Notes: generated by a model not told the origin, from the sequence alone. 41,789 nucleotides of DNA from Bilabrum cf. latius (GCA_965178125.1 OZ237776.1:496001-537789), one strand, 5' to 3'; shown: positions 1-41,789, counted from the first letter of the stretch. Numbers and translations: made by a program.

Positions 1-462
1 TCCTCGCTGCGGCCCGTGCTGGAGAACTCCGACTACGACAGCCCCCCGCTGCAGGGCGCTGCAGTGGTCGGCGAGGACCTCCACGGAAGGAGGGCAGTCG
101 GGGCCAGCAATCCGGGGAGCGGGCTCGTGCCCGGCCCGTCCACTGGCCTCGTGTGGAAGAACAGCACCTTCTCGCAGTGGCCCAAGGACGATGACATGGG
201 ATACAGCATCCGCACGGACAGGTGGAGGTACACCCGTTGGGTGGGCTTCGATTCCCACGCGCGGCAGGGCAAGTGGGACGAGCTCAAGGGGGAGGAGCTG
301 TACGACCAGCAGGAGGATCCCTTCGAGATCACCAACAGGGCGGGGGACCCCGCGGTGGCAGCCAAGAAGGCGGAGCTGTTCGAGCAGCTCAAGCTCGGGT
401 GGAGGGCTGCCCTGCCCAAGCAAGCGGGGGCAGCGCGTGATGGTGCGCGCAAGCAGGTCTGA
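1..462 (+). CDS. Sulfatase, iduronate-2-sulfatase-like, C-terminal part (5' truncated by window)
   Basis: Frame open from base 1. FSQWP...MGYSIRTDRWRYTRWVGFD...ELYD...DPFEITN resembles the IDS/choline-sulfatase C-terminal region (MGYSIRT..YRYT.WV.F, ELY...DP.E..N). Ends TGA 460-462. Confidence 0.8.
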   Translation, partial: SSLRPVLENSDYDSPPLQGAAVVGEDLHGRRAVGASNPGSGLVPGPSTGLVWKNSTFSQWPKDDDMGYSIRTDRWRYTRWVGFDSHARQGKWDELKGEELYDQQEDPFEITNRAGDPAVAAKKAELFEQLKLGWRAALPKQAGAARDGARKQV

Positions 463-634
463 TGCGCTTTCCGGAATTGGCCTGGAGTTGTGCAACCAGT
501 CCTGTCCGGGGCCACTACGATGGGGCAGCAGCGGTCAATGTAGAGCATGCAAGGCATGAAGGTGGCTTTCAGGCGAACCCAGTCCGACCCGGTTGTAGCA
601 AGTACAACGTATTCAGTATACACACAGCTCGCAG

Positions 635-3600
635 TCAACCCCGACCCGGGTCGTCGTCCCCCACACCCGAGGCGGGCTGCTCCTGGGCTGCCCCCGCATT
701 CGATCTACCTTCATCCATCCCCGCAGTTGCATCACCGCTCGCCAGTCGCTGCTCCCTTGCCCTGAGCGCCTCCTGGAACTGCGGGTTGGACTCCTCCATC
801 TGCAGGTAGGCTTGTCCCTGCACCACGGTCCAGTACCTGTACTCGGGCCGGTTCCTCTGCTCCCAGTCCATCTCGCCCTCGAGGGACCGGATGATGCGCG
901 CCTGCTCCAGCACCCACCTGTCCTCGGCCTGCTCCGCGATGTTCTGAAAGGTGTCGCTCATGCTGGCGATCAGAGTGTTGAGCAGCAGCACCGACATGAC
1001 CACCACATACCCCAGCAGGAGCCCCTGCGCCAGGGCACCCGTCACCACCCTCAGAGCGCCTGATACACTCCACACGCCCGCCCCTGCCCCCTCATCCCCA
1101 CCCACACCCGCATCTGCACCCCCTGCCAGCCAGTCCACTTCCTCATCAGCGCTCTCAGCCAGGTCATAGTCCTGCAGCACGATGCGGAAGGACTTGTACA
1201 GCCGCTGCATGAAGAGCCCTCCGCCACCCCCCAGCGCGGGGTCGTGCAGAGAGAAGGACGCCTGCGTATACCCCATGAGCAGGACCACCATGAGTACGCC
1301 GAAGCGGGCCACGTCCTTGCGCAGCATCTCATAGATTGCCACCACATAAGGCCCAGTTTCTGGAAAGCCAAGAACGAAAAACAACGTGCGGCCCCACGCG
1401 CCCAGCGCAGCACCAGTCAGTAGCAGCCGAAAGACGAGCCCAGCCAGCTCGGAATCGCCAAGCCATCCCCCGGCCACAGGCCCTGCATCTGCCCTGCACC
1501 ACGCCTCCTGCTCTTGCGACAAACCAGGGAACACACTTCCCGCCAACCAGCCCAGTGGCCGCCCCACATCCGAGCATACCACCGCCTGTGGCTGTCTCAG
1601 CACCGCCAGCACCGCCAGTGCCGCCACGCACGAGCTGAAGGTCAGTGCCGTGGTGTTCTCCACGAACCCAGCCCCCCTCACACTCAGGTACTCCCGGATG
1701 CCCTCCCTCGCCACCTCCATGCCCTCCACCATCAGCTTGGACAGAGCAAACGCAGTGACCCAGCCCTCCAGCAGCCCGGGGGCAACGCACGCCAGCCGGG
1801 CACGGAAATACGAATCTCCCACCAGCGTCAGCAGCACTGCGCTGGGCCCCGATCCATCGCTGGCACTCGGCGGATCCATCACTCGCAGGGCGCAGCTGTG
1901 CGTGTCCCGCAGCACCCAGGCGTGCTGTTCCCTGGCACCCACCGCCGAGGCCAGCACGATCCCCAGCACGAAGCACAGCAGCATCACTGCATGCTCCACG
2001 AACCGGCGCCCGAATACTTCCTGCGCGAACCGCTGCCACTTCTGCCGCAGCACCTCCCGCACCCTTGGCAGCCGCAGCATGTCCAGCCACTCCGCCTCGA
2101 TGATCAGATCCAGCGCGCTGCGGAACTCGATCCGGGGTGGGGGGCCCGAGTTACCACCGGGGGCGGGTTTCAAGCCTGTCGGTGTCGTTGGCTCCTCCGG
2201 CGCGCCACCAGGCGACGCTCCAACTGGACCGTTCGATTCATTCGATTTATTCGTTCCTCGGCTCGCTGCCGTGCTGCTGGCCCCAGACTCTTTGGATCCA
2301 AGCGGCGGACTGCCCGAATGCACTGCGTCCGCCCCTGCGTGCGGGAGCGCCTCCTGCCTCGCCCTGAGCACTAGCCTCGCCTCTCTCACCGCCCTCGCCT
2401 CCTCCTCGAACTGTTCCCTGGCCCTCCCCCGGTCCCCCTGCACCCCGTCCAGCTCTGCCAGGGGGTACAGCACGCACGATACAGGCCCGTAGGTCCAGAA
2501 TACCTGGCAGCTCGAGTCCAAGATGTGCTAGAACATGCGGCGCCGCCCGAGTCTGGCTGCCAGCTGCAGCGGAGTGAGTCCGGCTGCGCTCCTGACCCTC
2601 TCCAGAGGTGGGCGGCCCATGCGCCTGCCGGGGTCGTGCTCGTGCAGCTCCCTCCAGAGGTCACTCACGTAGTCGTACATGGCCGGCAGGTCGTGCACCA
2701 CGGCCATGTGCAGCGCGTGGTGGCCCATCACATCGGCCACGTACATGTCGCTAGAGGGGCACATGGCCAGCGCGCGCACCAGGGCGGGCTGGCAGGTGCT
2801 CACCTGCGGATGGGAAGGGGGCAGGGTGGTCAGGGGCATTGAAGGGCACCGGTAGCAGCTGTGACGAAGGAGCATGATTGCATACCATGCTACTATGTCC
2901 ATGCACCGGCAACTAAAGGCCGTACCAGCGTACAATTCGCAAGAGTACGGTGCACCACTGGCAGCACCGCGGCGAGACTCACAGCGAAAAGCAGCGGGAG
3001 CTCTCCGTAGTAGCAGCTCGTGTCTCTGTCAGCCGTGAAGCGCTGCCATGAAAAGAAGCTACCTATCGCTCTGTAATGCAGCAACCGAGGTGCTTGCTAC
3101 GCCAGCATTCGGACCCGCTACAAGTCACCGTTAACGACTGCGATGTGAAGAACGGTCTCCCCCTCGTACGCCGAGGGTCGACCATCGCCTGGTCCTACAT
3201 ATTGAGCCTCAACAAGCTTTGGAAACATGCCAACTAGCCAGTCAGCCAATTCGTAGTGCTTGTGCTCATGAAAAAGATAGCACAGGTGCAGAGCAGAAGC
3301 CCCGACAGCATCACGTTTTTTGTTGAAGAATTCCTCAGCATCGTCTCCTTGCTCGCTAGCAACAGCTTTTAACGCCTCGAGGTCCCCTTCTTTAACAATA
3401 TTCACGAGCGTCCCCTTCGTATGGGCGCTTGAAGCCTGAGCATCGTTGCGAAGCTTGGATTCCTGCATAAATGACACCGTGCGATGAAGCATCGGTGGAG
3501 CTTCTGCAGCAACTGTAGAAATTCCATCTGAACCAATCTACGTTTCCTTTGTAGCCATGCTGATTCGTGCTGCGTAGCAAGAACAGCTGTGATCAAAAGT

Positions 3601-3757
3601 CGAAAGATGAAGATCTAGTGATCGACTCACAGCAGAAGCTGCGGGCGAAGGGGCTGCACCTTTGGGCAGCGGCAGCGGCAGAGCGGGAGCCCGCGCCTCT
3701 TCTATCGGGCGCTTTCACGACGCCAGCTGTTGTCTATGGAAGCTGTGGTGGCATCAT
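635..3757 (-). CDS. TRPV-like ankyrin-repeat cation channel (spliced; in-frame TAG codons; 5' exon structure uncertain)
   Basis: Ankyrin motifs YEGETVLHIAVVN, YYGELPLLFA, GHHALHMAV, GLTPLQLAA; WTYGP motif; hydrophobic TM segments; S6 LLLNTLIASMSDTF and TRP-box-like WVLEQARII. GT-AG intron 2982..2804 (GCT|GTGAGT...CGCAG|GTG, phase 0) joins LPLLFA to VSTCQP. In-frame TAG at 3118-3120, 3097-3099, 2528-2530. Tentative first exon from ATG 3757/3754 with intron ~3630..3587; the link from there to the 3118..3492 frame is not resolved. Stop TGA 635-637. Confidence 0.8.
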
Positions 3758-4088
3758 CGAAGCGACCCACTGCAGGCGGCACCACAGCTGCAGTCACGCT
3801 GGCCACCGCTATGGCAGACCAGGATGGTGCGGAGGGCTATGATCAGGGGAGCGGGGAGGGTACCGAGGGGGACGTGGACGTGCCAGTCGTGCGGGGGGCG
3901 GGGGTCTATCTACCCTTGAGCTGTCTGTGGAGGAGCTGAGGCAGCTGCAGAGGGAGCTTCGCCCTTCACTGTGGCACGAACAGCCAACTCCAATGCCACA
4001 GTGTGGGCCGGCAAGTTCATGCCGGCTCTTGAACCTCCGTAAAGCGGAATACCTTGCGCAACAGATTAGTGAGATCATATCAAAAGAG

Positions 4089-4282
4089 AATCAGTATGCT
4101 TCAACTCAACCCACCAGGTCCCTTGCGGCCTTGCCACGGTCGCCCACCCCAACAATCAGTATGCTTCAACTCAACCCACCAGGTCCCTTGCGGCCTTGCC
4201 ACGGTCGCCCACCCCAACAATCAGTATGCTTCAACTCAACCCACCAGGTCCCTTGCGGCCTTGCCACGGTCACCCACCCCAA
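4089..4282. repeat. 65-bp tandem repeat, about 3 near-identical copies
   Basis: TCAGTATGCTTCAACTCAACCCACCAGG... recurs at 4091, 4156 and 4221. It overlaps the last codons and the TGA of the large minus-strand gene. Confidence 0.95.
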
Positions 4283-7200
4283 GCAGCAGGTCAAATACCA
4301 GCTCCGTCACCCCGCTATTCCGCAGCTTGTTGCACCGTAGGTCGCCGCCACCCCTCAAAGAAACCATGTCGTGCAGCTGCATCACTGCCGAAGTGGTAGC
4401 CACGTGCTGCCGCTCGCCCATCTCCCTCAGCTGCCAGATCCTGTTCTCGTACGAGCACTCCACGTCAAGCGGCCCCAGCACCCCGTCATCGTCCAGGTCC
4501 AGGACTCGGAACCAGTACTCCACGGATGTGTTCCCCATGCGGTCCTGCATTGCCTGCCGCAGCCACACGAAGTCCTCGAAGTTCAGGCACCCCGCCCTGC
4601 CGCTGGACAGAGTCCTCGCCCTGCCAGCAAACACCCGCTCCAGCGCATTGCTGCACACCGGCACGATCCGCTGCCCCGCGGGCAGAGAGCCGACAGTGCC
4701 CTCCTGGTCGTCTGCCCCGCCACCAGGTGGGTTGGAGGGACCGCCTCCCCCTCCATTGCCGCCTGCCCCGTGCAGAGGCAGCACCGGGCCCGGGCTGACC
4801 GCGTGCACAAGCTGCTGTAGAGTGAACGTGCCTCTGTTGGCCCGATCCACGGCCCTGTAGAGCGCCTCCACGTCCCTGAAGTATCGAACAGAGAAGGGCA
4901 ACACGTTGTCAGTTGTGGTGACGCTGCACATGAGGAAGGCATCCACCAGGTTGGACGAGCACAGCTCCTTCATCGTGACCCGAGAAGTGGTCAGCCCGTG
5001 CAGCGAGGCAAACAGAGACGCCAGCACGCAGGCCACGTACCTGGACCGGGCCACAGGGTCGCCCCGAATGCCGGACAGGTCGGGGTGCCTGTCCACGAGC
5101 GACTCAACCGCGGGTCTCAGATCGTCCATGTACACGTGGCTCCCGGCGGGGTGGTCGCACACCAGGCCCCCGGACCACACCACGTCATCCGCCCTGTCTC
5201 CTTGCCCCGGATCCTCCTCTGCACCAATGGGACTCCCCTGGCCAGAGTCAGAGCCAGAGTCAGCCCCGGCAGCCCACCGCGTCGCAGCGATCTCGCCCGA
5301 GGACTCGCGCCTGCGCCCGTGCTCGCTCTGTCTCCGCAATTCCAGCTCCGGATCCTGTAGGGGGGCAGAGTCTGGGTGCGGGGAAGGTGCCTCCAGCTCA
5401 AAGGCAGCTGGCAGCCGCGATTTGTCCCCGGGGGCAGGCAGGCCCGGGTACAGCTGGCCCCCGTTGCACCTCGCCGTCGAGGCCTCCACGAGCTCGTCCG
5501 CAGTAAGACCCAGCTGGCTCGTTTCTCCTCCGCCAGAAGAGCCATGTTCCCTCCGCCGCGAGCTCGAAGTCACGGACCCGCGCTTGTCTTTCCGGCCGCC
5601 CTCGCCCTTGTTCCGAACAGTCGTCCCGGCGGGAATCTGACCAGCTGCCACTAGCGTGCGGGTGACCGTGTCGGCGTTGTACACGTTCACAGGGGGCGGG
5701 ATCCACCCGTACGTCACCTGCGCGTCCACTTCGGGGAGGTTCCGCTCGCGGCGCCAGGCTTCCAGGTTCCGCACAGCCAGTCTAGAGGCGCCGCGCATGT
5801 GCCTTGCCTAGTTCCGCTTTGCCTCCCGTCCCAGCCGCATCCGCAGCAGATCCATCGGGCAAAACCCGTGTGCCGCCCCAAGAGAGGCCAGCTGGGCCGC
5901 TGCTGCCTCAGTTGGGTTGCGATACCGCTTGGACTGGAACGCCCGCCCACCGCTATCTTGCGCGGTTGGCGACAAAAGGCCCCCAGAGGTCGCGCGGGTG
6001 CCTCGGTCGTAGTCTGGGTCGTTCTCGTCTGCCAGTCCAATGACCATGTCACTCGTCACAGCGTCATCCGTGGTAGCCGACCGACCATCTCCTTTCCGCA
6101 AGCGGTCCATCTGGCCTACTTTTGCCCTGCCCTGTCCCCGTGCCTGATCCTGTCCCTGATCCAGGTAATCCACGGATGTCTCCAGCGAGCCATCTCCAAA
6201 GGACCCCTCGGCGCCATCCCCGTCCTCCTCCCCGGGCCCAAGATCTCCCGGCCCTGCGCTGCTGATGCTGCCGGAAGACGGCGACCGAGAGCTGTCTCCC
6301 CCACTGTCCCGGCTCTCCTTGCGCATGCTCGAGCGGCCCCGGACGGGGCTGGACTCGCCGGGCAGGGGCGTCTCCCCACCTGACGACTGCCTATCACCCA
6401 GCCCCCCAGGAGCCATGCTTGTCACTCGCAGGTGCACCTCCTTGAGACCAAGAGCGTCGGAGGCAGTTGAATTCCGCGCGTGGGGGACTTTGATCCCGAG
6501 CTTTGCGGCAACCGAAGAGCCGAGCACGCCCGCGGTCTCTTCCCCCGCTTCAGCGCAGCTGGGCAACACCGACACGGCCTTGCTGTCCCCATACATTTCG
6601 AGCAAGAGGGCCTTCAGCATCTCCCTCTGGCTGCTAGGCAGCTTCCGGATGCTGACCTTTGCCGACGAGTCGCCCTGTCCCTTGCCCTCCCCTGCAGAGC
6701 GAGACACAGCACCATGCTCCAGACCGCCTAGCAGCCAGTGCCCGATCGCATCAGATGCATGGGAAAAACTGGCCCCAGAGTCCAGCTGTGGCTATCCACC
6801 GATCCCAGCCACGAACAGCCCGCCTGACACTCTCGCAGACCCGCCTCCTGCAGCGCCCCGCGGTCCCCGGCACCAGTGCGCCAGGGACGGGTCCTGCACG
6901 CGCATCACCCCAGTCACTGCTCGAGGCCCGAACGCATCGGGTTCGAAGGCAGAGTCGATAGGACCCCGCTCTGTCGAAGGCCCGGCTGCTACAGACCGGA
7001 CGGGCTGCTGGCTTGGGCGCAAGACCACGGAGTCGTCCCAGTCCGAGGGTGGGTCAGCCTGCAGCACGCCGTCCAGAGACCTCCGCGCTAGGTCAAACGG
7101 GGTCCTTGGTGGCACCTCCCTGCTTCCTACTTGCGTCGGTGCAGGCACGGCCAGCAGTGCCCTGGGCACCACGCTGCTGCCTAGGCGCGACCGGGGGACG

Positions 7201-10200
7201 CTGTCATCCTCTCCACCCCCCTGCAACCGCGTGTCCTCGTGGTGGCCGTACACAGCCGATTGAATCTTCTGCTGCCGGCGCCGCGCAGGTACCCGGAGAG
7301 GCACCGGGACTAGCCCCGTCTCGCTAGTGCCGCCCCCAGCTGAGCCTGAGGCATCCAACCGGTCAGGCTTACGAGCCATCGCTGCAAGCTGCGCCGCATG
7401 CGAGTACACAGGAGGGCGCGTTCGAGGCTACAAGCGCCTCGGGGGGCATGGGTGACGCAGGAGCATCGTGACCCCGAGTCTGCGAGGCTCTTGCATCACG
7501 CCCGGGTGCCAGATCCTGAGGAACATCGCCATCGAGACCATGGGCCGGGGCCCGGGGGCCACCTCCCACGGCTCGGGGATCGCCCCGATCTGGGGACTCC
7601 AGCAACCAAAGTCCAGAGCAAATCCCCCGCTGGCATACCTAAACGCCCTGCGCCCGACGGTAGACCAGGCAAGGGGCCGTAGGGGATGCGACTGTGACAC
7701 GTGCCCTCTCTGCGTGGAAGACGACTGCCCCATCGCGTGCCTGCGGTCCTTGCACACTGGGCCCATGCCCAGCGGAACCACATCGGGCGCCGCGCCCACG
7801 ATTGCCGCCTGCAGGCGGGCCACAGAGGATGCCGATGAGTGTGACGAGTAAGAGTCTGTCGAGCCAGCGCTGTCCAAGCCACGACGCAGGCCGGCGATAT
7901 TCCGCAGAGCAGTGGCAGCGCGTTTCTCCCAGCGAATTGCCAGCCGCAGAGCCTCCTTGACGCCTGCTGCGGCCCTGCGCTTGTGTCCCGTGCTCATCGG
8001 AAGGGCAGGCACCTGGTCACCCATGCCAGGCGAGCTTGAGGAAGAAGTCTACTGCTTCCTGACAGCGTTGTGCGAGTCTCGGCTGGACCCCGGCCCGCCT
8101 ACTGGCCCTTCGTGTCGCTTGGAGGACGAGGTGGCACCGCCGCGTCCCATTGCGCCGGCAACTCCCTGCCCCAGCACGCCCTCTCTCGCCCGCCAGGTGT
8201 ACCAGTCCACGTCACGCTCCCGCAGCACTCCTCTCCGCAGGGCCTCGGAAACATACACTCGTTCCTGCTCCCACAGCCGCTGGTCCCGGCGCATGGCGCG
8301 GCGAGTACCACTACTGATCCTGGCTGCAGGCGCCTCCAGAGGCACCTCGTCCTCGCGCCTGGCGTCACCCACCCTGTACCCGAACTGCTTGCGCATGTCC
8401 TCGTCTTCCTTCTCCTCGCTCCTGCCGCTGGGTGCTCCTCGCCGACTACCACTCGCACCATTGCGGCGCATGCGATTCTGGGTCTTGGCTCGCAAGTCCC
8501 CACGCAGCTCGCGCAGTAGGGCTCGCAGACACCACGCGCGGCAGGCGCGGTGGTATGACGCGCGCGCAGGCCATATCCGCTGAGACTCGTATGCAACCGC
8601 GTGCTCCGCGAGGTGCATGAGCACTGGGGCCGCGTCCCTAAGCAAGGCAGCGACCAGGCGGGCGCATGAACGACCGCCAACCGGGCTATCACGACTACTC
8701 CCCACATCTGCGGCAGCTCTACACAGGATTTTGACGAAGATTTCCGCATACACTGCAGAGGCAGCTGCTTCTGCCGCGGCAGCCTGATGCGCATCTGCCC
8801 ATGCCTGATGGATCGCACGGAGGTGCAGCACAGGTCCAAAGTAGGCTGGCAGCCGGCAGTGGTCTCTCACCAGGTGCTTCCAGTTGCGGCCATCTGCTCG
8901 GCGCAGCTGTCCCTCAGACCTTAGAGCGTGGTTGGGGCGCCAGCTAGACAGCTGCAGGCCGCGCCAGTCCAGGCCTGCCAGCTGCATCGCCCGTAGCACA
9001 CCGCCTTGACCGCCGCCCAGCACTGGCGCGGCCCCAGCGCTGGCAACTTCCCTAGATGCGGCCCCGGCCCCACTCGTAGCATCAGAGGGTGCCATGAACT
9101 GAGAGGCAGCTGTGGTCACCGGACATGGCACGCTGTTGGATCCAGTGGCCATTCCATCCGGTGCCCCAGCCACAGCGCCGTCAACAGGCATGCCGAGCAC
9201 CGAGGTGCCGCTGGCTACCGCCTCAAATGCCGCGCCTCGTGCAGCAGCAGCCGCAGTGCTGGACAGCTGAGGGTACGGCGGCTGCGTCACCGACATGGGC
9301 GGTGCCGCCGTCCGGCACATGGAGCCCATGGTCCTCTCAATGCCGCTCTGCAGCCTGCGCTCGAAGGGAGGCCCATCCTTGGCCCCTGGCTTGCGGGCCG
9401 TGGCAGAGGTCCTCGAAAGGGACCGCCCCTCGGTGGCGTGCTCTGGTCCATCGCCCGCGTCTCGGCTCGATCCCACATCCAGACCAGTGGAAGAGTCACT
9501 CGGGTACACGTGTCCGTCCTGCGACACAGGCACCCTGCTGCGGGCCCCGAATACGGCCCTCGTGGTGGACGGCACCCGTTCTTTCCAGCGGAGGTACACG
9601 TCCATCGGCAAACGGGGATACAAGCACGCTCGAGCGGCCGCCAGCGCGGCCCGGTGTGCGGTCACCATGGCCAGCAGCAGGCAATGGGGCTAGGCCTCCA
9701 TGCCGGCCTAGCCCTCCCCATCGGCCCCCATCCCGCCCAAGCTCTAGCTTTTCATGTCAAGCCCGAACTGGCCGGGCCATGCGCCGCGCAGCAGCTCCGC
9801 GAGGGTGGCCATGGCAGGGAACACTAGAGCGGGGGCCTGGACCGCCCGCATGCTCTGCAGAGAGAAAGAAGCCGCGCCCAGAGCATCCGCAGGCTGCAGC
9901 CGACTGTGCTCCGGTGTTGTCCGCATCCAGGCGGGGGGGGCATCCCCAGTCGCCGTATTCCGCTCGAGGGCATCACGTGCGCCTGCCGCTGACGAGTCCG
10001 TGCCTCTGTGAGCCGAGCCACGCATGCGGCGCCGCGCATCTTTCAGAATCCATGCCTTCCGGAACCTGGACCCCGAGCCCCCATCATCCAGTCCCACGGG
10101 CGGCTACAAAGCATCGTCAGGGGACACCAGCCGCTTCTGCTGAAGGGTCAGTTCGCCCTTGTCTGCCTTGGCGATGCTCGCGCTCACTGGAGAGTCCTCG

Positions 10201-12617
10201 CGGCCTGGAGCATTCGGAGGATCTACGGCTCGGCTGCGCATGATCAGAGCGCATTCGTCACCCGCTACACGCGCGTCTACCCGCGCCAAGGCCTCGGCAG
10301 TCCCACAGAGATCGGCCCCACGCACCTTCCTGACCATCTGCTTCATGGTCGCATAGGCGGCCTGGCCTGCAGCTCTGGGATCTTCCTCCATTGCTACTAC
10401 AGCCTTGCTTGCCTTGCTCGTCTTGCCTGCTGCGCTAACCTCGCTGCTGCCCTGAATGTCGTCCTCACTGTCGTGCTTGCCCTCGCCGTCCCCCACGCTC
10501 TCCTCCGCTGCCTCCTTGCCCTGCAACCCCACCGCTACCTCCCGCCTCGCCGCCAGCGTGCCCTTTACCGCCCTGACCCTCAGCTCACCAGAGCGCCGCG
10601 CCAGCCCCGATAGCAGGTCCATCACCAGCGGCCAGTGAGTCGCAAAGGCGCACACAATCGCCTCCCCATCAGCGGGCAAAGCCCCGATCATGCTCTGGTA
10701 GGCCTCCCGGTCACCGGCGGGTGCCTGCCTCATCCGTTGTGCGTTGGCCCCCCGCCTGCTCTGCACCACCCCTGCGACCACGGCTGGCCTGGCGCTGGGC
10801 AGGGTGGGGTGCGGCACGTGGTGTAGCATGGGGCACGGAGGCGGGCGCAGCTCCGATCGGATGTCGCGCGAGGCATCTTTTACCCAGGCCGTGCCCTGTG
10901 TCAGTGACGCCTGCACCCAGGCAGCAATCGATTCTGGATCCGTCGGCATCGGAGTCTCGTCCGCATCCCCGCGCTGGGCCTTGCGCCTGACTTGCGCTGC
11001 AGCTGGCGCTGCCACACTGGAGGAGGCAGAGGCGGTCAGGTCCTGCCCGTCAGCACCAGCCCCTGCAGTCGATGTGTGCCGTGAGGCTCGCGGGGAGGAC
11101 TGGGCCGTGCTCTCGTGGTCTGCAAGAGAGCGGGGCATGCGAGCAGGGGACCGGACGGTCAAACTCTGCGCAAAGTGCCCGCTTGCACCCATGGAATTAA
11201 CGCCAGATGCGTCCCCGACAGCTCTCGCTGCAGCCCTGCGAACCCGATCCATCTCTCCTACAGAATCCGGGTCGGAAGGACCGGTGGCATGCGGGCGTTG
11301 GTGCCGCGTGGGCCCAGGGGGTAGACCTTCCAACGAGCTGGGGCCGGTGCTTGGCTCTCTAGCCGGCGGCGCGCCGATGCTGCCCTTGATCGCAGGGCCC
11401 CGCACCAGCCCGCCAAGACTTGCTGCTGCCCTGTCTCTGTCCGGACCTTCCTCCTCACCCTCCTCCTCTCCAATGACTTCGTCCACATCGGACCCATCCC
11501 TCTCTTGGCTAGCTCCTATCGTGGCATCCGCGCCATCCCCAGATACTGCCGCAGAAGCAGCTGCGGCCAGAGGTGGAGACAGGGGCGGGGACTCTCCTCT
11601 CCACGACCTCCGCCTGCTCTCCGCTTTGGACAGAGAGGCGCGCGTGGGGAAGTAGTCCTCCGGGGGAGCGGGCAAGCCCAGGCCGACTCCTGTAGAGCGG
11701 GCGGCCTGCGGGCTGGGAGGGGCGCCACTGGGGCTGCTCGGTCCAGATGTGATTGCACTCGTCACACTTTCCTTGCTATCGAGCCAGGCCAGCGCCTCCT
11801 CGTCGGCACTCACCTCTGAAGGTCCATAACTCTAGCCAGGAGTAGTGGGGGACTCATCACCAGTGCCCGGGGGCGTGCCGTTCCCGCTGCTGCTACCCTC
11901 TGTGGCGCGCGGACTTTGCGACCGGGGCGAAGAACCGCTCCCGCTTCCACTCCCGCTTCCCGTGCCCTCCGCCTGCCTCAGCTCTGAGCCTCCCCGGGAC
12001 ATGGAGCTGGGACTCAGCCCAGGGAGAACCCTGTCCCCGGTACTTGCAGCCCGCTGCAGCGCACGGGCGCGAGCACGGGCGTTGGCTCCCGCGCGCCCTC
12101 TACCCACATAGCCCGCACCCCTGGCCCCCTGCCCCCTCTGAGCACCCGAGGCCCCCGCCGCGGAGGGGAACATGCCCGCCATGCCTGCCTGGGTCCGAGG
12201 CATGGCGGGGCGGCCACCGAGGGCCATCGCGCTCACCGATGCACTCGTCATACTACCACCGCTACGGGCCTGATTGGACTCAGGGGTTGCCGCTGGGTCC
12301 GCACTCCGGTGCCCCTGCCCCCGCGCAGCATCACCCGCAGCACCTGTCACCCCGGTGGACCCCAGGCTGCGGGGCCGCATGGACGGGGAGGGGGTGTGCG
12401 GCTTGGTGGGCTGGAACACCGCGTCCCGTGCATATGCAGCCGCGGCTGCATGTGCCGTGGCCTCTTCCACGGAGGATCTGCTCGAGTGCCTCGTGCCGTC
12501 GGACCTGCTGCTTCGCACCGATGAGGCACGCGAGCCTGCACCGGGGTCGGTTCGGCTGGCACGGGCAGATGAGCTGTCTGAACCGTCCGACTCCGCTCTG
12601 CTGTTCTAATTCTCCAT
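4236..12617 (-). CDS. Very large (~2,793 aa if unspliced) protein with C-terminal PP2A regulatory subunit B'' (PR72/PPP2R3-like) EF-hand region; 10 in-frame TAG codons
   Basis: ORFs 11832..12518, 10104..11813, 9744..10097, 8049..9668, 7428..8024, 6792..7409, 5808..6707 and 4236..5798 share one frame. I read the gaps codon by codon and the only stops are TAG (12606, 11832, 10104, 9744, 9708, 9690, 8049, 7428, 6792, 5808). Start ACA-ATG-G at 12617 (MEN*NSRAESDGSDSSS). C-terminal part resembles B'' motifs: DDLRPAVESLVDRHPDL, NFEDFVWL, TSVEYWFRVLDLDDDGVL. Stop TGA 4236-4238. Confidence 0.75.
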
Positions 12618-13989
12618 TGTTCGCGACAGTCTGGCCCCTGCAGCCCGCAACACGCCGCCTAGTCGGTCCTATTCGTCCCTTGCTGCCATTTGGTCCGCAA
12701 GTCTCTGACGGGTCCACCAGTCACCCAATGACAAGACTGTTCACCACAGAGTGTGAACGTCTCCGCTGCACTCAAATGTCTTTCTGGTGTAACACGCGTA
12801 CCTGCGTCAAAACTGAGAGCGAAGGGGGGCCAGAGAAAAGATCACAGTCAGTAGTCTCGCCGTCCAGGTCGACAAATCCCCGGTGTCAATGCAGACTTTC
12901 ACTTGCCGACTAACAATTCACAATTGTTTTAAATACACTCAGTCCTTGATGCTTCGAAATGCTCTCCAGATCAGCGGGACGATCGCATGATTCCAGCACC
13001 CACACAGCTGTTGCATCACTACACCCTATCCAGGCCTTGCAATCCCTACAGGGACTCAATTGATATTAAACCAGCTGATGCAAATCACAGGATTGTATGG
13101 AATTGATGGTGGGCGGTGATTCCACTGGTAGACTGTGAACACACCATGCACCAAGATCTCCAAAACAAGCCGCCAGAACACAAGCGCCGACGGCCCGGCA
13201 TGTAGGGTCTCTGCCTACTAGTTGCCAGATCACGCTCAAGTAGCTGGCAAGATCAACCCGACATAAAAACCATTTGCCAATCGTCAATCCCACCAGCATT
13301 CTAGCCCGGCCCTCACGGCCAAATTAGCATGAAAGACCGAATTCTCCGGTCAGCAGTGAACAATCGAGCACATTAACTCCGAGAAAGCAAACCCAATGGG
13401 ACTTTTCTCACGTATTTCTTCTCCAGCCGCAACTACAAGGCTAGCGTGTGTCGCGATACAGGCTTTCAATCAGTACTGGTCGGGTACAGCGCGTGAGTAC
13501 CGCTTAGTGGTCTGGAAAAATGCAATTGCTCCGACGATACAGATTACCCGAATCTCAGCCGCCTCCGCTCTCTCGGACAGGTGCTGATAGCTCACAAGGT
13601 ATTTGGAACAGTGTCCATTGCAACGGAACCAACAGAAGAAGCCGCGCAAAAGTTGGTCGCAAAGGAGCGTGCCAGAAATTCGTTGGAGCTGAGCGCCATG
13701 CCTCAGCCAGCTGCAAACGGGTGAAATGTCGAGAGTTTGACTACTCGATGGACCGTATGAGGGCCGGGCCCGAAAAGCTTGATTCCATGTTGAACGAATG
13801 GTGATAGTCCACCCTCATATAATATCGATAGTTGTTTGCCGTTTGCCCTGTCGGGAGAATCCAAGCTGAGACACCGGACGGCCGTGGAAGCGAAGGGTGC
13901 ACCCTCCCGGTGTTCAACTGCAACGACTAATTTCAAACCAGGACATGATGCAGCCCCGCATGCAGATAATAGTGCCCAGCAGTCTCCAT

Positions 13990-16228
13990 TCATTCCTCAG
14001 GCTTGGATTCACCGGCATCCGCAGCCTTCCCGGCATCATCGGCTGCCTTGCGCAGAGTCTGTACCTCAGCCTCCAACGCCTCCTTGGCGGCTCGAAGGGC
14101 CGCCGTCTCTGCTGCAAGTTTTCCCTTCAGCTCGTCGTTCTCTGCCTTGAGGCGCGCGATCTCTGCCTGCGCCGCCTTCAGCGCGTCATCCCCTCCAGCG
14201 CCCGCCCCGCTGGCTGCCCCCGCCGCGGGATCCGCCGCCTTGGCAGCCTTGGCCTGCTCTCGCTCCGCGGCGGCCTTTTTGGCGGACTCGTCCACCACGA
14301 ATCCGGAGCTGCTGCCGGCTCCCGCTCCGCCGGTGGCAGCCCCCGCGCCCGCTCCCTCAGCGGGCTTCATGGAGGCCCGCTTTGGCTTGGCGTCCTTCCC
14401 GCCGAACCACTGGTCCGCAGTGAGGGCAGGGGCTGCCGACACGCAGTCGGGGTACAGATCCGACTGGAAGGACTCGCTCTTGCGAGGCACCTGGAAGGAG
14501 ATGCTGCGGACCTTCTTGTTCTCCAGCTTGATGAAGCGGGCGATCTCGGTCTTGCCCACGTCCACGGCGCGGCGAGGCACCTGGGCGATCCCCTTGGCCG
14601 CGTCTCCCATCGACATGCGGGCGATCTCGTAGGGCTTGGACTTGGGGATTTCCCAGTACCGGATGGAGGCGTCTCCCTTGGCTGCCACGTACAGGATGCA
14701 CGAGGCTTCGTCGTAGAAAGGCATCATCACACCCGCGGCCGAGTCCAGCTCCTGGTGGATGACGGGCGCGTCCAGACCCTTGCCCAGGTCCCACACCTTG
14801 AACTCGCGGCCCGACATGCGGGTGAACCCGGTGGTCACGAAGCGGTTCTTGCCGTCCATCCAGCACATGTTCACGGTCTTGGCACCCTCGTGCGCCGTGA
14901 AGGTCTGCTGGGCCTTCTTGGCGTCAGCCCTCGGGTCCCAGAGCCGGATCTTCTTGTCCTTGCTCGAGGTCAGCAGCAGCTTGCCGTCCTCGCTCCAGCA
15001 CAAGTTGGCGATGGGCTTGCTGTGACCAGTGATCGTGACTGCGTCAGTCAGCTTGGCCACGTCCCACAGCCGCACGGTGTTGTCTCTGGATGTGGATGCC
15101 AGCGTCTGGTTGGCGCAGGGGTGCCACTTGAGCAGCATCGTGTCCTTGTCGTGGCCCTTGAGCACCGCCGAGGGCTCCTCGATGTTCTCCTGCACGCCAC
15201 CCTCGGGGATGCTCCACACCATCACCGTAGCGTCCCTAGAGGTCGATGCCAGCAAGGAGTCGTTGTGTGGTGAAAAGGCCGTGTCCTGCACCTGCGCGCG
15301 GTGGCCCGTCAGCATGGGCACGTCGGGGCGCACCTTGCCGCTGCCGTCCACCGGCTGCACCAAAATCTTGCCGCCGCCGCCACGAGCCGCCACTGCCCAG
15401 TACAGTGCGCTTGCGCTGATCATGTACTGGTCGCCTGCGAATGTTGAACTATCCGAGGGCAGCAAGACGACGTGAACGTGCTGAGTGCATTCGTACGGAC
15501 GGAGCACGTGATACGATTGGCTCACCGGTACCGGAGGCCAGCTGAATATCAAGATATGAGGATTCATCTTTGGACTCGGTTCCAAAAACGTGCCTGCGAT
15601 GGTGTATTTGTTGATGAAGGGGTTGAAGGTCAAATCTTGCTGCTGCTGCTACTGCAAACTCTCGTTGATAGCCAACTACAAAGCAGCATCCAACCAAGCA
15701 TTCCAAGAGCACGGTACAGAGCTTAATATGCACTTATGCTGTGCACGCACATAAACAGGGAAGCTTCCTTTGCATATTCAGGTGTTCTTGGGCACTGAAC
15801 GGTACAGGGACGAGCTACGGATGAACACAAGCATGCCTTGCTTTAGGCCCGAGGTTTGCCATCCGTCAATCCTGAAAGTATTATAATGCTGGAACACTGG
15901 GAATTCCAGATTTGCTTCACGCTCTACATACACTAAAACAAATGCAAGCCACAACGTGGGCGATCCTGACGCATTCCATGTTGAAGCTGTCACATCAAGC
16001 AACACGTGCGGCACAAATTCAGTCAGAGCACAAATATGTATCTATGCAAATGGCATGCCTTGCCATTGGCACATTTGCAGGCGACATATCCACAACTAGC
16101 CCTGAGTCCAGATTTCGCCAAGCGAGCCAAAAACCGCAGATTATCATGCCCTTGCCACGAATGTAATCAGAACTTGCGGTCAAATATTCTCACCTGTAGC
16201 TACTCTACCTAACGAATCGGGAGGACAT
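13990..16228 (-). CDS. Coronin (WD40 actin-binding protein with C-terminal coiled coil), 3 exons, 515 aa, in-frame TAG at codon 8
   Basis: Exons 16228..16194, 15593..15526, 15434..13990 with GT-AG junctions and matching phases (total 1548 nt). N-terminus MSSRFVR*SSYRHVFG matches the coronin signature (VRQSKFRHVFG). WD repeats, KGDASIRYWEI, VPRKSESFQSDLYPD, coiled-coil tail. Stop TGA. Confidence 0.92.
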
Positions 16229-16747
16229 GCCTCAACGAGCTATCAAGTCGGACTAAGCAGTACAAAACGATTCTGCTCAGTCACGCAATTCCTTGCCTCA
16301 AATGCAGAATCTGTGAAGTAGCGTGCACTCTGCAACTCAGGGCGGCCAGGGCGGCACACGCAGCGAGGCGCCAGCTGGCGCCCCAGGCCCTTTCATGTCG
16401 CATTGGGGCATCACCGACTGGTTCTACTAGTCATGACAGTCGCTTCGACTACGCGAGATCCACAGGTGCACTGAGTGAGCAAGTGCGGAGTGGGCTTTTC
16501 TAAACGATACAAATCACAGGCATATCGCGGTGGAATATTCGATGGACAAGAAGCTAGTAGCACGCACATAGCACCAGCACTTGGCCGGTGGCACAACACC
16601 GCAGCCCGTGGCCGCCTTGCCTCCCGTGGTAAGGCCGTGCCCACACCGTGCTGTGGTTCAACCTTGTTGCGCCGTGTGCGCCTGCATGCATGTCAAAACA
16701 GTTCTTTCCTACGGCTTAGCACCGTCTCGGTCCCTAGATCGGATCGA

Positions 16748-17546
16748 TCACTCGTAGATCTGGGTCTCGATGCACGACGTGTACTCGGCGCAGCCCTCGG
16801 GGAACCACAGGCCGATCTCCTTGACGGCATCCTCGGGCACAGCGCTGGCGTGCACGGTGTTGCGGCCGATGTCCACGCAGAAGTCGCCGCGGATGGTGCC
16901 GGGCGTGGCGTCAGCGGGGTTGGTGGCGCCCACCAGCGAGCGGCCAGCCTTGATGGCTCCGAGGCCCTCCCACACCATGGCGAACACGGGGCCGGAGGTC
17001 ACGTACTCCACCAGAGAGGGGAAGAACCTGCAAGTAACGAACGTGTTGAGCGTGTGGCAAAGATAACTCGCGCCTGATGCACATCGTTAAGCACAACATC
17101 ATTTCGCGTGACAATCCTGAAATCAGCTCACTTCTTCTCGGTCAACTCAGAGTAATGCTCGGATAGGAGTTCCTTAGTGGCAGTGGTCATCTTCGCGGCG
17201 ACCAGCTTAAGTCCCTTCTGCGAAACAAAGAAGAGAAAGCCTGTCGGTACTGCAAGGGTGCCTAGCTGTTCATTTGCAGCTATGATGCACATAGAATCGG
17301 CAGTAAATCAGCCCTAAAAATACAATTTCGTAGCGCACACAATTTAATAGAACAGTTTGCAGCTAATGTTGACATCCAAGTTTTCATTGCTGCAGATCGA
17401 AGCCCCGACTAGCTCGAACAACAGGTGTTGCATGAACTCACCCGCTCGAAGCGGCCGATGATCTCGCCGACAAGACCACGCTGCACACCATCGGGCTTGA
17501 TCATCACATAAGTACGCTCCTTCTTGGCATCAGCAGCGGCGGCCAT
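16748..17546 (-). CDS. NDK: Nucleoside diphosphate kinase, 3 exons, 156 aa
   Basis: Exons 17546..17442 ([26 protein letters not shown]), 17217..17132 and 17027..16748 ([27 protein letters not shown]), GT-AG introns, total 471 nt. Stop TGA. Confidence 0.95.
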
Positions 17547-17691
17547 CTTTCACTAGTTGTCCTTAAGATGCGTTGGGGAGGGCCGATGCCGCAGCCAACT
17601 CCAAGGTTCGCTGGGGTTCTCTCCGAACTAAGCACATCTAAACGCGGCGCAACGAAGACTTCAAAAAGCATTCAAGCAATATAAAACGTCG

Positions 17692-18113
17692 CCCACACAC
17701 CTTCGACCCATGCAGCCATCCGCGGCCCTCGCCGCACATCTCGACACACCCTCGCCTTACCCTAACCCTAACCTATGCAGCCATCCGCGACCCTCGCCAC
17801 ACATCGGCCGCACACCCTCGCCCCTTGCAGCCATCCGCGGCCCTCGCCACACATCGGCCGCACATCCTCGACCCATGCAGCCATCCGCGGCCCTCGCCAC
17901 ACATCGGCCGCACACCCTCGCCCCTTGCAGCCATCCGCGGCCCTCGCCACACATCGGCCGCACACCCTCGCCCCTTGCAGCCATCCGCGGCCCTCGCCAC
18001 ACATCGGCCGCACACCCTCGCCCCATGCAGCCATCCGCGGCCCTCGCCACACATCGGCCGCACACTCTCGCCCCTTGCAGCCATCCGCGACCCTCGCCAC
18101 ACATCGGCCGCAC
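17692..18113. repeat. Subtelomeric 50-bp C-rich minisatellite (~8 copies)
   Basis: TGCAGCCATCC anchors at 17711, 17777, 17827, 17877, 17927, 17977, 18027, 18077. Runs directly into TTAGGG. Confidence 0.95.
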
Positions 18114-39582: not shown

Positions 39583-39779
39583 GGTTAGGGTTAGGGTTAG
39601 GGTTAGGGTTAGGGTTAGGGTTAGGGTTAGGGTTAGGGTTAGGGTTAGGGTTAGGGTTAGGGTTAGCGCAGGTGTGGGGGGCAACTGTCGGGATTTGGAT
39701 ATTTGAAAAAGCAAAGAGGGGTGCCGTTGCGTTTTTCTGGCCTGTGCCGGGCTTGGTGGGCAGGGTGCGAGGGCGCAAT

Positions 39780-39786
39780 GAGGAGG
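39780..39786 (+). promoter_or_regulatory. Shine-Dalgarno sequence
   Basis: GAGGAGG 5 nt upstream of ATG 39792. Confidence 0.8.
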
Positions 39787-39791
39787 GGACG

Positions 39792-40562
39792 ATGGAACGG
39801 GTTGTGGTCGAGATCGAGGCGGGGGTCGCGCAAGTGCGCCTGAACCGTCCTGACAAGAAGAACGCGGTGGATATTGCCATGGCCGAAGCGATTGTCGCGG
39901 CGGGGCAGGGCCTGCGCGACGCGGATATTCGCGCGGTGGTGCTGTCGGGGGCAGGGGGCGCGTTTTGTGCGGGCCTCGATGTGATGAGTTTCGCGCAACT
40001 GGCCCAACCGGACATGCTGGCGCGGTTCATGGCGCGCAGCCATGACGACTGTAATCTGATGCAAGAGGTCGCGATGATCTGGCAGCGGCTCGACGTGCCG
40101 GTGATCGCGGCCTTGCAGGGGGTGGCCTATGGCGCCGGGTTTCAGATGGCGCTGGGCGCGGATATTCGGATCGCGGCCCCGGACACGAAGCTGGCGATCA
40201 TGGAGATGAAATGGGGGCTGATCCCCGATATGGGCGGGATGGTGTTGCTGCCACGCCTGACGCGGTCGGACGTTATTCGGCGCATGACCTATACCGCGCG
40301 GCCCATTGATGGGGAGCAGGCCGAACGCTGGGGGCTGGTAACGGAGCTTGCCGAAGATTCGGTTGCGGCGGCCACGCAGATGGCGGCAGAGATCGCTGGC
40401 AAAGGGCCGAACGCGATCAAGGCCGCCAAGCGCCTGATCGGACTGGCCGAGACGGCGGGGCGCGCGGAGGTATTGCTGGCTGAGAGCGCCGAGCAAAAGG
40501 CCCTGATCGGGCAGGCCGAGCAGATGGGCATCATCGCGGCCAATATGGCGCGCGGGGGCTGA
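39792..40562 (+). CDS. Bacterial enoyl-CoA hydratase/isomerase (crotonase family), 256 aa
   Basis: LNRPDKKNA, AFCAGLD, PVIAALQGVAYGAG, MEMKWGLIPDMGG motifs; SD-supported start; no introns. Confidence 0.92.
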   Translation: MERVVVEIEAGVAQVRLNRPDKKNAVDIAMAEAIVAAGQGLRDADIRAVVLSGAGGAFCAGLDVMSFAQLAQPDMLARFMARSHDDCNLMQEVAMIWQRLDVPVIAALQGVAYGAGFQMALGADIRIAAPDTKLAIMEMKWGLIPDMGGMVLLPRLTRSDVIRRMTYTARPIDGEQAERWGLVTELAEDSVAAATQMAAEIAGKGPNAIKAAKRLIGLAETAGRAEVLLAESAEQKALIGQAEQMGIIAANMARGG

Positions 40563-40573
40563 GAGAACAGACA

Positions 40574-40608
40574 AAAGCCCCCCAACGTGCTGCCAAGTGG
40601 GGGGCTTT
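40574..40608. terminator. Probable bidirectional rho-independent terminator
   Basis: Perfect 11-bp inverted repeat AAAGCCCCCCA / TGGGGGGCTTT with a 13-nt loop between two convergent bacterial genes. Confidence 0.75.
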
Positions 40609-40691
40609 CAAAAGAGCTTGATCGCGCGTGTCACGATCCGCGCCGAAAGGAAGATGCCTCCGGCGGGGATATTTAGGAAAGCAAAGAGCGG

Positions 40692-41789
40692 CTAGCCGAT
40701 CTCGGCCAAGCGGGCGAGGGCGGCTTTGAGTTTGGCCTCCTCGGCCTCTTTCTGGGCCAGCAGCTCGCGGTTCTCGGCCACGACCTCATCCGGCGCGCTC
40801 GCGACGAATTTGGGGTTGTTGAGACGGCCCCTGAGGCCCCCTAGGTCCTTGGCGAGCTTGCCCATGGCCTTTTCCAGCCGCGCCTTTTCCTCGTCTACGT
40901 CGATCAGATCGGCGAGCGGCAAGCAGAAGGTGGCGCCCTCGACTGCGATGGTGACGCTGCCTTTGGGCAGGGTGTCCACCGGGGTCAGGCTTTCGATGCG
41001 CGCGAGGCGTTTGATCATCGTCTCGTTGTTGGTCCAGGCGGTTTGGCCGGCCTCGCTCAGCTCAAGGCACTGCATATGGACCTTGAGGCCCACAGGCACG
41101 TGCATTTCTCCGCGTGCGGAGCGGACGTTTTCGATCAGGCTGATCACCCAGTTCATCTCGCGGCTCGCGGCCTCGTCGGTCAGATCGGCGGCGGCATATG
41201 TCGGCCAATCGCCATGCACGAGCATTTTCTGGCGGCTCGCAAGGGTGCCCCAAAGCTCTTCGGTGATGAACGGCATAAACGGATGCGCCATCAGCAAGCA
41301 CTGGTCGAGCACCCATGCCATGGTCTGGCGCGTTTCCTCTTTTTGCGCGTCGGTGCCGTCGAGCAGCAGGGGCTTCGACAGCTCCACATACCAATCGCAG
41401 ACCGTGCCCCACACGAAGCTGTAAAGCGCGCTGGCGGCGTCGTTGAAGCGGTAGGCGTGGAGCGCCTCGTCGATGACCTCGCGCGTTTTCGCGGTCTCGC
41501 CGATGATCCAGCGGTTGACCGTCTCGGTGCAGGCGTCGGGCTTGGTGGTCGCGCCCTCATAGGCACCGTTCATTTCGGCAAACCGGCAGGCGTTCCACAG
41601 CTTCGTGCCGAAGTTGCGATAGCCTGCGATGCGGTCTTTGCTGAGCTTGAGAACCCCGCCGATGGAGGCCATGGAGGCGTTGGTAAACCGCAGCGCATCG
41701 GCCCCGTATTCGTCAACGATCTCAAGCGGGTCGATGACGTTGCCGGTGGTCTTGGACATTTTCTTGCCCTTCTCGTCGCGCACGAGCTG
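40692..41789 (-). CDS. valS: Valyl-tRNA synthetase, C-terminal part (5' truncated by window)
   Basis: KMSKT (KMSKS-type) motif, [38 protein letters not shown]-terminal coiled coil with [11 protein letters not shown]. Ends at TAG 40692-40694. Confidence 0.96.

Follow-up and report, generated by a model that had tools for sequence, protein, structure and literature searches.

UAG probably serves as an ordinary, if fairly infrequent, glutamine codon in the nuclear genetic code of Bilabrum cf. latius, with UGA as the terminator at every gene end seen (probability about 0.85). This reading comes from a stretch of 41,789 nucleotides (GCA_965178125.1 OZ237776.1:496001-537789; "the window" below always means the whole stretch), whose bases 1-17,600 have a GC content of 57-67% and carry five eukaryotic genes. 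Three of them contain in-frame TAG codons: a coronin gene, a TRPV-like cation channel gene, and a gene for a very large, mostly low-complexity protein, here called the big gene. These codons are present in DNA and in spliced, polyadenylated transcripts, the sequence downstream is under selection, and TAG and CAG interchange between relatives. UAG is thus read as a sense codon, and the residue is most likely Gln.

A preliminary description of this DNA had proposed that UAG encodes an amino acid, probably Gln, and the exchange of TAG and CAG in both directions between relatives supports that proposal. Its count of 14 in-frame TAGs (10 in the big gene, three in the TRPV-like gene and one in coronin), with no in-frame TAA or TGA, was reproduced, and its claim that all five eukaryotic genes stop at TGA holds when the stops are read directly. 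The codons 3′ of the TAGs are also as varied as it described, for the sites it gave.

Gene models were drawn from joints in RNA contigs and from homology. Among 24 public sequencing runs listed, X1–X4 derive from one DNA sample, X5 and X7 from one study and X6 from another. The features are as follows.

1-462, + strand: 3′ end of a sulfatase-like gene that runs off the window's left edge (weak Pfam SGSH_C match, E 0.0048, below the curated cutoff); TGA 460-462
635-3492, - strand: TRPV-like cation channel gene; exon A 2983-3492, exon B 635-2803; TGA 635-637
4236-12799, - strand: main exon of the big gene; TGA 4236-4238
12800-13409, - strand: intron towards the 5′ end of the big gene, GT-AG, 610 nt; joint 12799/13410 in X5 and X6, not in DNA run X1
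at least 13410-13610, - strand: upstream exon of the big gene, from a spliced contig
13990-16228, - strand: coronin gene, 516 codons; exons 16194-16228, 15526-15593 and 13990-15434; TGA 13990-13992
15594-16193 and 15435-15525, - strand: coronin introns, from spliced contigs; joints of the first in X6 and X7, of the second in X5, X6 and X7
16748-17546, - strand: nucleoside diphosphate kinase (NDK) gene, 157 codons; exons 17442-17546, 17130-17217 and 16748-17025, with joints 17025/17130 and 17217/17442; Pfam NDK 4.4e-29; zero TAG; TGA 16748-16750

Residues opposite TAG in relatives

The coronin gene begins ATG TCC TCC CGA TTC GTT AGG TAG AGT AGC TAC AG/GTGAG, with TAG as codon 8 (16205-16207). 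The protein would read MSSRFVR-TAG-SSYR and continue from exon 2 with HVFGTESK, the N-terminal signature of the family, and the TAG lies downstream of the sole ATG that yields this conserved N-terminus. A full-length coronin among the Logan proteins (P0124, 515 aa) reads MSSRFVR-Q-SSYRHVFG, with Q at position 8; it falls in the same 90% cluster as P0004, which is 99% identical to the window coronin. Across 75 homologues with a recognisable N-terminus, P0124 included, column 8 holds Q in 33, A in 17, S in 17, K in three, P in two, and T, R and D in one each, while Leu and Glu occur in none.

The big gene encodes 2,794 codons from the ATG at 12617, with 10 TAGs, or 2,818 from the ATG at 12689, with 11 (low coordinates 5808, 6792, 7428, 8049, 9690, 9708, 9744, 10104, 11832, 12606 and, with the longer form, 12669). 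Its sole Pfam domain is an EF-hand_13 of the PP2A B'' type (4.7e-09, amino acids 2533-2602), C-terminal and downstream of every TAG. TAG 7428-7430, codon 1771 of the open frame, sits within a conserved motif, PCPPRRL-TAG-PRTRPP. An orthologue of 969 aa with 94% identity (P0127) has Q at this site between identical flanks (PCPPRRL-Q-PRTRPP), as does a more distant one (P0129, 71% identity over 136 aligned residues). P0127 begins with the first Met that follows TAG 9708-9710, and its last residue is the one just ahead of TAG 6792-6794. Because the protein is bounded by TAG sites, its gene caller evidently took TAG as a stop, so the Q inside it represents a real sense codon. The search of representative proteins gave three matches in all. 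A homologue search with a 330-aa piece of the big protein that carries four TAGs found no match within the length range searched, and comparison of the whole big protein with shorter proteins matched P0127, P0130 and P0131 and covered no further TAG site.

The exchange is also visible at the DNA level in a 3,424-nt metagenome contig (L001), whose coronin is 75% identical to that of the window. Opposite the TAG at coronin codon 8, L001 has CAG. Conversely, the C-terminal domain of its big-gene copy carries an in-frame TAG (L001 406-408) exactly at the window CAG 4671-4673 (Gln 2690, GTVGSLPAG-Q-RIVPVCSNALERVFAG), with identical flanks on both sides. CAG makes up only about 3.5% of the aligned codons in either the window or L001, so that these pairings are not due to chance. 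On the small sample available, then, relatives have Q or CAG against TAG at three sites (coronin codon 8, 7428-7430 and L001 406-408). Estimates of dS between the window and L001 are about 1.1-1.4; such near-saturation of synonymous sites indicates two different species, and with dS above 1 the UAG reassignment is common to at least one further, well-diverged species. The two are arranged differently: in L001 coronin follows the 3′ end of the big gene on the same strand, after about 490 nt, while in the window the order is reversed, with coronin as the upstream gene. The L001 coronin is also without the second intron.

Coding frames, selection and transcripts

The big gene shows the signature expected of a rare sense codon. 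Its minus-strand frame stays open over 4236-12740 (2,834 codons) with 11 TAG, 0 TAA and 0 internal TGA before the TGA at 4236-4238, whereas over the same positions the two remaining minus-strand frames hold 42 and 46 TGA, 20 and 23 TAG, and three and two TAA. Given this off-frame supply of TGA, its complete absence from the big frame shows that selection has cleared it from this frame. TGA is wholly purged and TAG is tolerated at about half of background, a pattern that does not reflect the chance openness of GC-rich DNA. Across the four minus-strand genes (516 + 2,794 + 893 + 157 codons, or about 4,360, a total in which the TRPV-like model is partly putative), there are 14 TAG, 0 TAA and only terminal TGA, and TAG makes up roughly 8-9% of Gln codons.

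Purifying selection extends past TAG. Between the window and L001, dN/dS in the C-terminal domain of the big protein is 0.159 upstream of the L001 TAG (135 codons) and 0.144 downstream of it (143 codons); for coronin it is 0.179 (355 codons). The 14 in-frame TAGs, the low dN/dS beyond such a codon and the alignment of orthologues across TAG sites together describe in-frame UAG followed by a conserved reading frame.

Transcripts carry the same codons. X1–X4 hold all sampled words of the test stretch and X5, X6 and X7 hold 0.57-0.86 of them, and contigs of X1, X5, X6 and X7, compared over 600-17600, contain no alternative letter and no indel. Five GT..AG minus-strand joints occur in X5, X6 and X7 and none of them in X1 (12800-13409, 15435-15525, 15594-16193, about 17026-17129, and 17218-17441), and in X5 a loose end of poly-T, before 16533, is the poly(A) tail of the NDK transcript; from the joints and the tail, X5, X6 and X7 behave as RNA. 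One 7,875-nt contig (X5 record 11) is colinear with 4242-12116 at 0 differences and spans nine TAGs. Another (X5 record 12) covers 12154-12799, with two more TAGs, joined to 13410-13610, and a third (X5 record 13) runs over 15525-16222 at 0 differences, coronin TAG included. In total, the listed X5 contig pieces from the big gene and coronin cover 12/14 TAGs without a gap or a differing letter, and the TAGs of these two genes are present in contigs from three studies. The preliminary description had held that its proposal would fail if the TAGs were spliced out, edited, or CAG in reads; at these 12 sites the contigs, which stand in here for raw reads, show TAG unspliced and unchanged, with the TRPV sites falling outside their cover. 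In X5, coronin intron 1 (600 nt, 15594-16193) is kept in the contig that lacks intron 2, and it is removed in X6 and X7; this retention may reflect partial splicing or pre-mRNA.

The TRPV-like gene holds the remaining three TAGs (2528-2530, 3097-3099 and 3118-3120), all in ankyrin-repeat sequence that aligns to the solved structures of TRPV3, TRPV6, Nanchung and Inactive. A phmmer search against PDB placed Inactive first (5.9e-24), followed by TRPV3, Nanchung, TRPV6 and TRPV5. Its intron at 2804-2982 is predicted from a change of frame and a GTGAGT donor. We assumed a start at 3492, with an in-frame ATG upstream at 3556-3558 as an alternative; a further TAG (3538-3540) follows that ATG, and the gene would hold a fourth TAG if it were used. 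Contigs of X5 and X7 match the gene from 922 upward and then pass into more than 250 nt of unrelated sequence, which may stem from a paralogue or from another transcript form. An alternative 3′ exon of the TRPV-like gene was rejected as an explanation of these loose ends, since homology to the solved TRPV channels is colinear past 922.

If UAG is glutamine in this organism, the ribosome must decode it efficiently: 10-11 UAGs precede the sole conserved domain of the big protein, and efficient decoding would be needed at each. By analogy with other lineages in which a stop codon became Gln, one would expect a tRNA-Gln with anticodon CUA (or UUA plus CUA) and an eRF1 that has lost recognition of UAG. 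The residue in the actual protein would presumably be Gln.

Evidence against glutamine and alternative readings

Several points weigh against reading UAG as glutamine. L001 is a single metagenome contig. The run data are assembled contigs, which drop minority variants, so that partial RNA editing would escape notice, and the DNA runs X1–X4 represent one sample that may be the window's own source. The three TRPV TAGs are without cover in the listed RNA contigs, and their alignment columns are variable (Nanchung A and TRPV6 N; Nanchung D and TRPV6 A; Inactive R and TRPV3 K) and give no guide to the residue. A tRNA scan of the window found no tRNA gene. Finally, P0127 has Ser at 2/3 of the TAG sites it spans (9690-9692 and 8049-8051), and Ser holds 17/75 sequences in coronin column 8. 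Separately, an Rfam scan of the window gave no match.

These Ser residues, together with the single base that separates TAG from TCG, make serine the strongest candidate should UAG encode a residue other than Gln, ahead of Glu, Lys, Tyr or Leu. Other protists are known in which UAG encodes Leu or Glu, as set out in the relevant passages of PMC5304391 and PMC10553269. Both Ser sites, however, lie in patches where neighbouring residues differ or an indel intervenes: at 9690-9692 the window reads MEA-TAG-PH and P0127 reads MEA-S-SQ, the two next residues differing too, and 8049-8051 adjoins a 2-residue indel in a poly-Ser run. By contrast, the Q at 7428-7430 lies within identical flanks in P0127 and is kept in the 71% identical orthologue, and L001 pairs CAG with a window TAG in one gene and TAG with a window CAG in another. 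Leu and Glu are moreover absent from the coronin column. We therefore read the Ser residues as probable ordinary substitutions at unconstrained sites, with Ser as a minor alternative, and regard any residue other than Gln as improbable.

A second alternative is that UAG is still a stop and is bypassed by context-dependent, programmed or leaky readthrough with a near-cognate tRNA-Gln(CUG), making the code ambiguous. Ambiguous stop/sense codes are known from Condylostoma and Blastocrithidia, in the portions of PMC4967479 and PMC12153298 that describe them, and no TAG-ended gene was seen here, yet just six gene ends were examined. Readthrough is nevertheless hard to reconcile with 10-11 UAGs in one frame, each of which would need near-complete decoding, with the diverse 3′ contexts of the TAGs, and with their distance from mRNA 3′ ends, where the real ends examined are TGA (5/5 in the window, 1/1 in L001). 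We give this explanation very little weight. Least credible, and largely refuted, is the standard code with real TAG stops in a pseudogene or several genes, with TAGs spliced or edited out, or with assembly errors: the big protein is indeed mostly low-complexity with one Pfam domain, and GC-rich DNA does yield long spurious open frames on both strands, but the big frame has no TGA in 2,834 codons against 42 and 46 off-frame, nine TAGs lie on a single colinear transcript contig that has neither a joint nor an altered letter, the same TAGs recur in contigs of three studies, the coronin TAG follows the only ATG that gives the conserved N-terminus, and orthologues are conserved across TAG sites with dN/dS of about 0.15 downstream of one.

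Flanking sequence, lineage and known variant codes

The introns of the window are of the GT-AG type and 91-610 nt long. At 4089-4282, three copies of a 65-bp unit (99% matches) overlap the last codons of the big gene and its TGA stop, so that the 3′ untranslated region repeats the C-terminal ...GDRGKAARDLVG-stop motif. Between 17.6 and 39.7 kb, beyond the five genes, blocks of a 155-bp satellite separate long (TTAGGG)n arrays. There are eleven arrays of about 91-199 copies and a short one of about 21 between 17776 and 39666, with the G-rich strand as the + strand and a period of about 1.85-2.05 kb for array and satellite blocks together; a 50-bp tandem repeat (6.8 copies, 17776-18113) stands ahead of the first array. 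This region represents either a higher-order repeat of the subtelomere or chromosome ends joined in series by the assembly. Right after the last array, 39667-41789 holds two bacterial genes without introns: an enoyl-CoA hydratase gene on the + strand (Pfam ECH_1, 2e-38) and, on the - strand, the C-terminal 365 aa of a valyl-tRNA synthetase, TAG-ended and 94% identical to that of a Dinoroseobacter sp. metagenome-assembled genome (L002). The bacterial end is most likely a chimeric assembly join with a co-cultured bacterium of the Roseobacter group, and it hints at a marine culture.

The best coronin match outside the window protein's own cluster, P0005 from Triparma eleuthera, is 44% identical, and the protein atlas labels the window protein "coronin, Eukaryota"; a coronin scan of genome contigs gave no match. 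In a quick tree of 69 rows (the first 56 matches, the named matches and P0124, with other listed matches left out), the window coronin lies on a long branch (0.99) and groups with two unnamed sequences (SH-aLRT 99). This trio is sister (94) to a clade that includes Triparma (a stramenopile alga), Aphanomyces (an oomycete) and Rhodomonas (a cryptophyte); fungi and animals fall elsewhere. The tree is too weak to assign the window to a named lineage.

Which stop codons changed is less clear than that UAG did. TGA ends 6/6 genes seen, including 1/1 in L001, where the big-gene copy also stops at TGA, and TAA ends 0/6. TAA is rare in all six frames of the big-gene stretch (0-5 per about 2,834 triplets), and because it is scarce in every frame, its absence from the coding frames is uninformative: if UAA were Gln too, a CAA:CAG ratio of roughly 1:8 predicts about 1-2 in-frame TAA in about 4,360 codons, against 0 observed. 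TGA at 6/6 ends can likewise be explained by base composition alone. A UAG-only code (NCBI table 15 type) and a UAR code (table 6 type) are therefore about equally probable for this organism.

Codes in which UAG alone became Gln are described, in the sections of PMC5304391 and PMC11687900 that treat them, for Iotanema spirale (Fornicata) and two phyllopharyngean ciliate lineages. The window resembles these table 15 codes, as portrayed there, in that in-frame UAG falls where conserved genes have Gln, and no in-frame UAA was seen. Iotanema retains UAA as its dominant stop according to the relevant part of PMC5304391, whereas here UGA stands at all ends seen and UAA was not observed. This organism further differs from Iotanema and the phyllopharyngeans in its GC content of about 65%, TTAGGG arrays, ordinary GT-AG introns and coronin gene. 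Ciliates are generally known to have other telomere repeats and AT-rich genomes. Among fornicates, coronin has been reported missing in Giardia, the only one examined (PMC3203266).

UAR-to-Gln codes occur in many ciliates, hexamitid diplomonads, Streblomastix, ulvophyte green algae and Amoeboaphelidium protococcarum (for Amoeboaphelidium, PMC5304391 and PMC11687900). Shared features are the change from stop to Gln, UGA as the only terminator (6/6 ends here) and the interchange of CAG and TAG; the lack of in-frame TAA is a difference. Amoeboaphelidium genomes have 40-40.5% GC and are annotated in NCBI, as stated in a portion of PMC10608142. Membership of that genus was rejected, since GC is 58-67% here and no protein match exceeds 44% identity outside its own cluster. 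Green algae (ulvophytes) and Giardia-type diplomonads are unlikely as the lineage, because coronin is present here, whereas Viridiplantae, Giardia, Rhodophyta, Microsporidia and Emiliania have been reported to lack it (PMC3203266). The uncultured rhizarian exLh is also similar: it is a non-ciliate protist that first came to light in data from other organisms, and UAG alone has been observed in a sense role there. Its UAGs stand at conserved Leu positions, and its gene ends are UAA (56) or UGA (15), as far as the relevant passage of PMC5304391 goes. The window departs from exLh, so described, in that Gln is indicated, Leu occupies 0/75 in the coronin column, and all ends seen are UGA.

Our literature search, which did not cover supplements and subscription journals, found no published report of such a code in a GC-rich organism with TTAGGG telomeres. 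The reassignment may, as the preliminary description suggested, be both unreported and independent. It is conceivable, although we would not bet on it, that the window represents an independent, unreported UAG-only to Gln code in a protist lineage that is very GC-rich, probably marine and outside the ciliates, with at least two well-diverged species, in which UGA is the working terminator and UAA has become nearly extinct through GC pressure. If true, this would be a case of stop-codon capture by GC pressure and not by AT pressure.

The reassignment of UAG adds a lineage to the short list of changed nuclear genetic codes, although the kind of reassignment is already known. Such changes seldom occur, and every independent case is a test of ideas on code evolution. 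Stop-to-Gln lineages are mostly AT-rich; a lineage of about 65% GC, with UAA almost gone from all frames and UGA at all ends, offers a useful contrast for codon-capture and ambiguous-intermediate models. There are also practical consequences for this organism and its kin. Near-identical sequence occurs in RNA-like runs under two other organism labels, and TAG-containing transcripts may be mis-assigned or lost elsewhere. Standard gene callers cut this organism's proteins at TAG, P0127 and P0004 being such fragments, and both this assembly and its relatives need to be annotated with the variant table.

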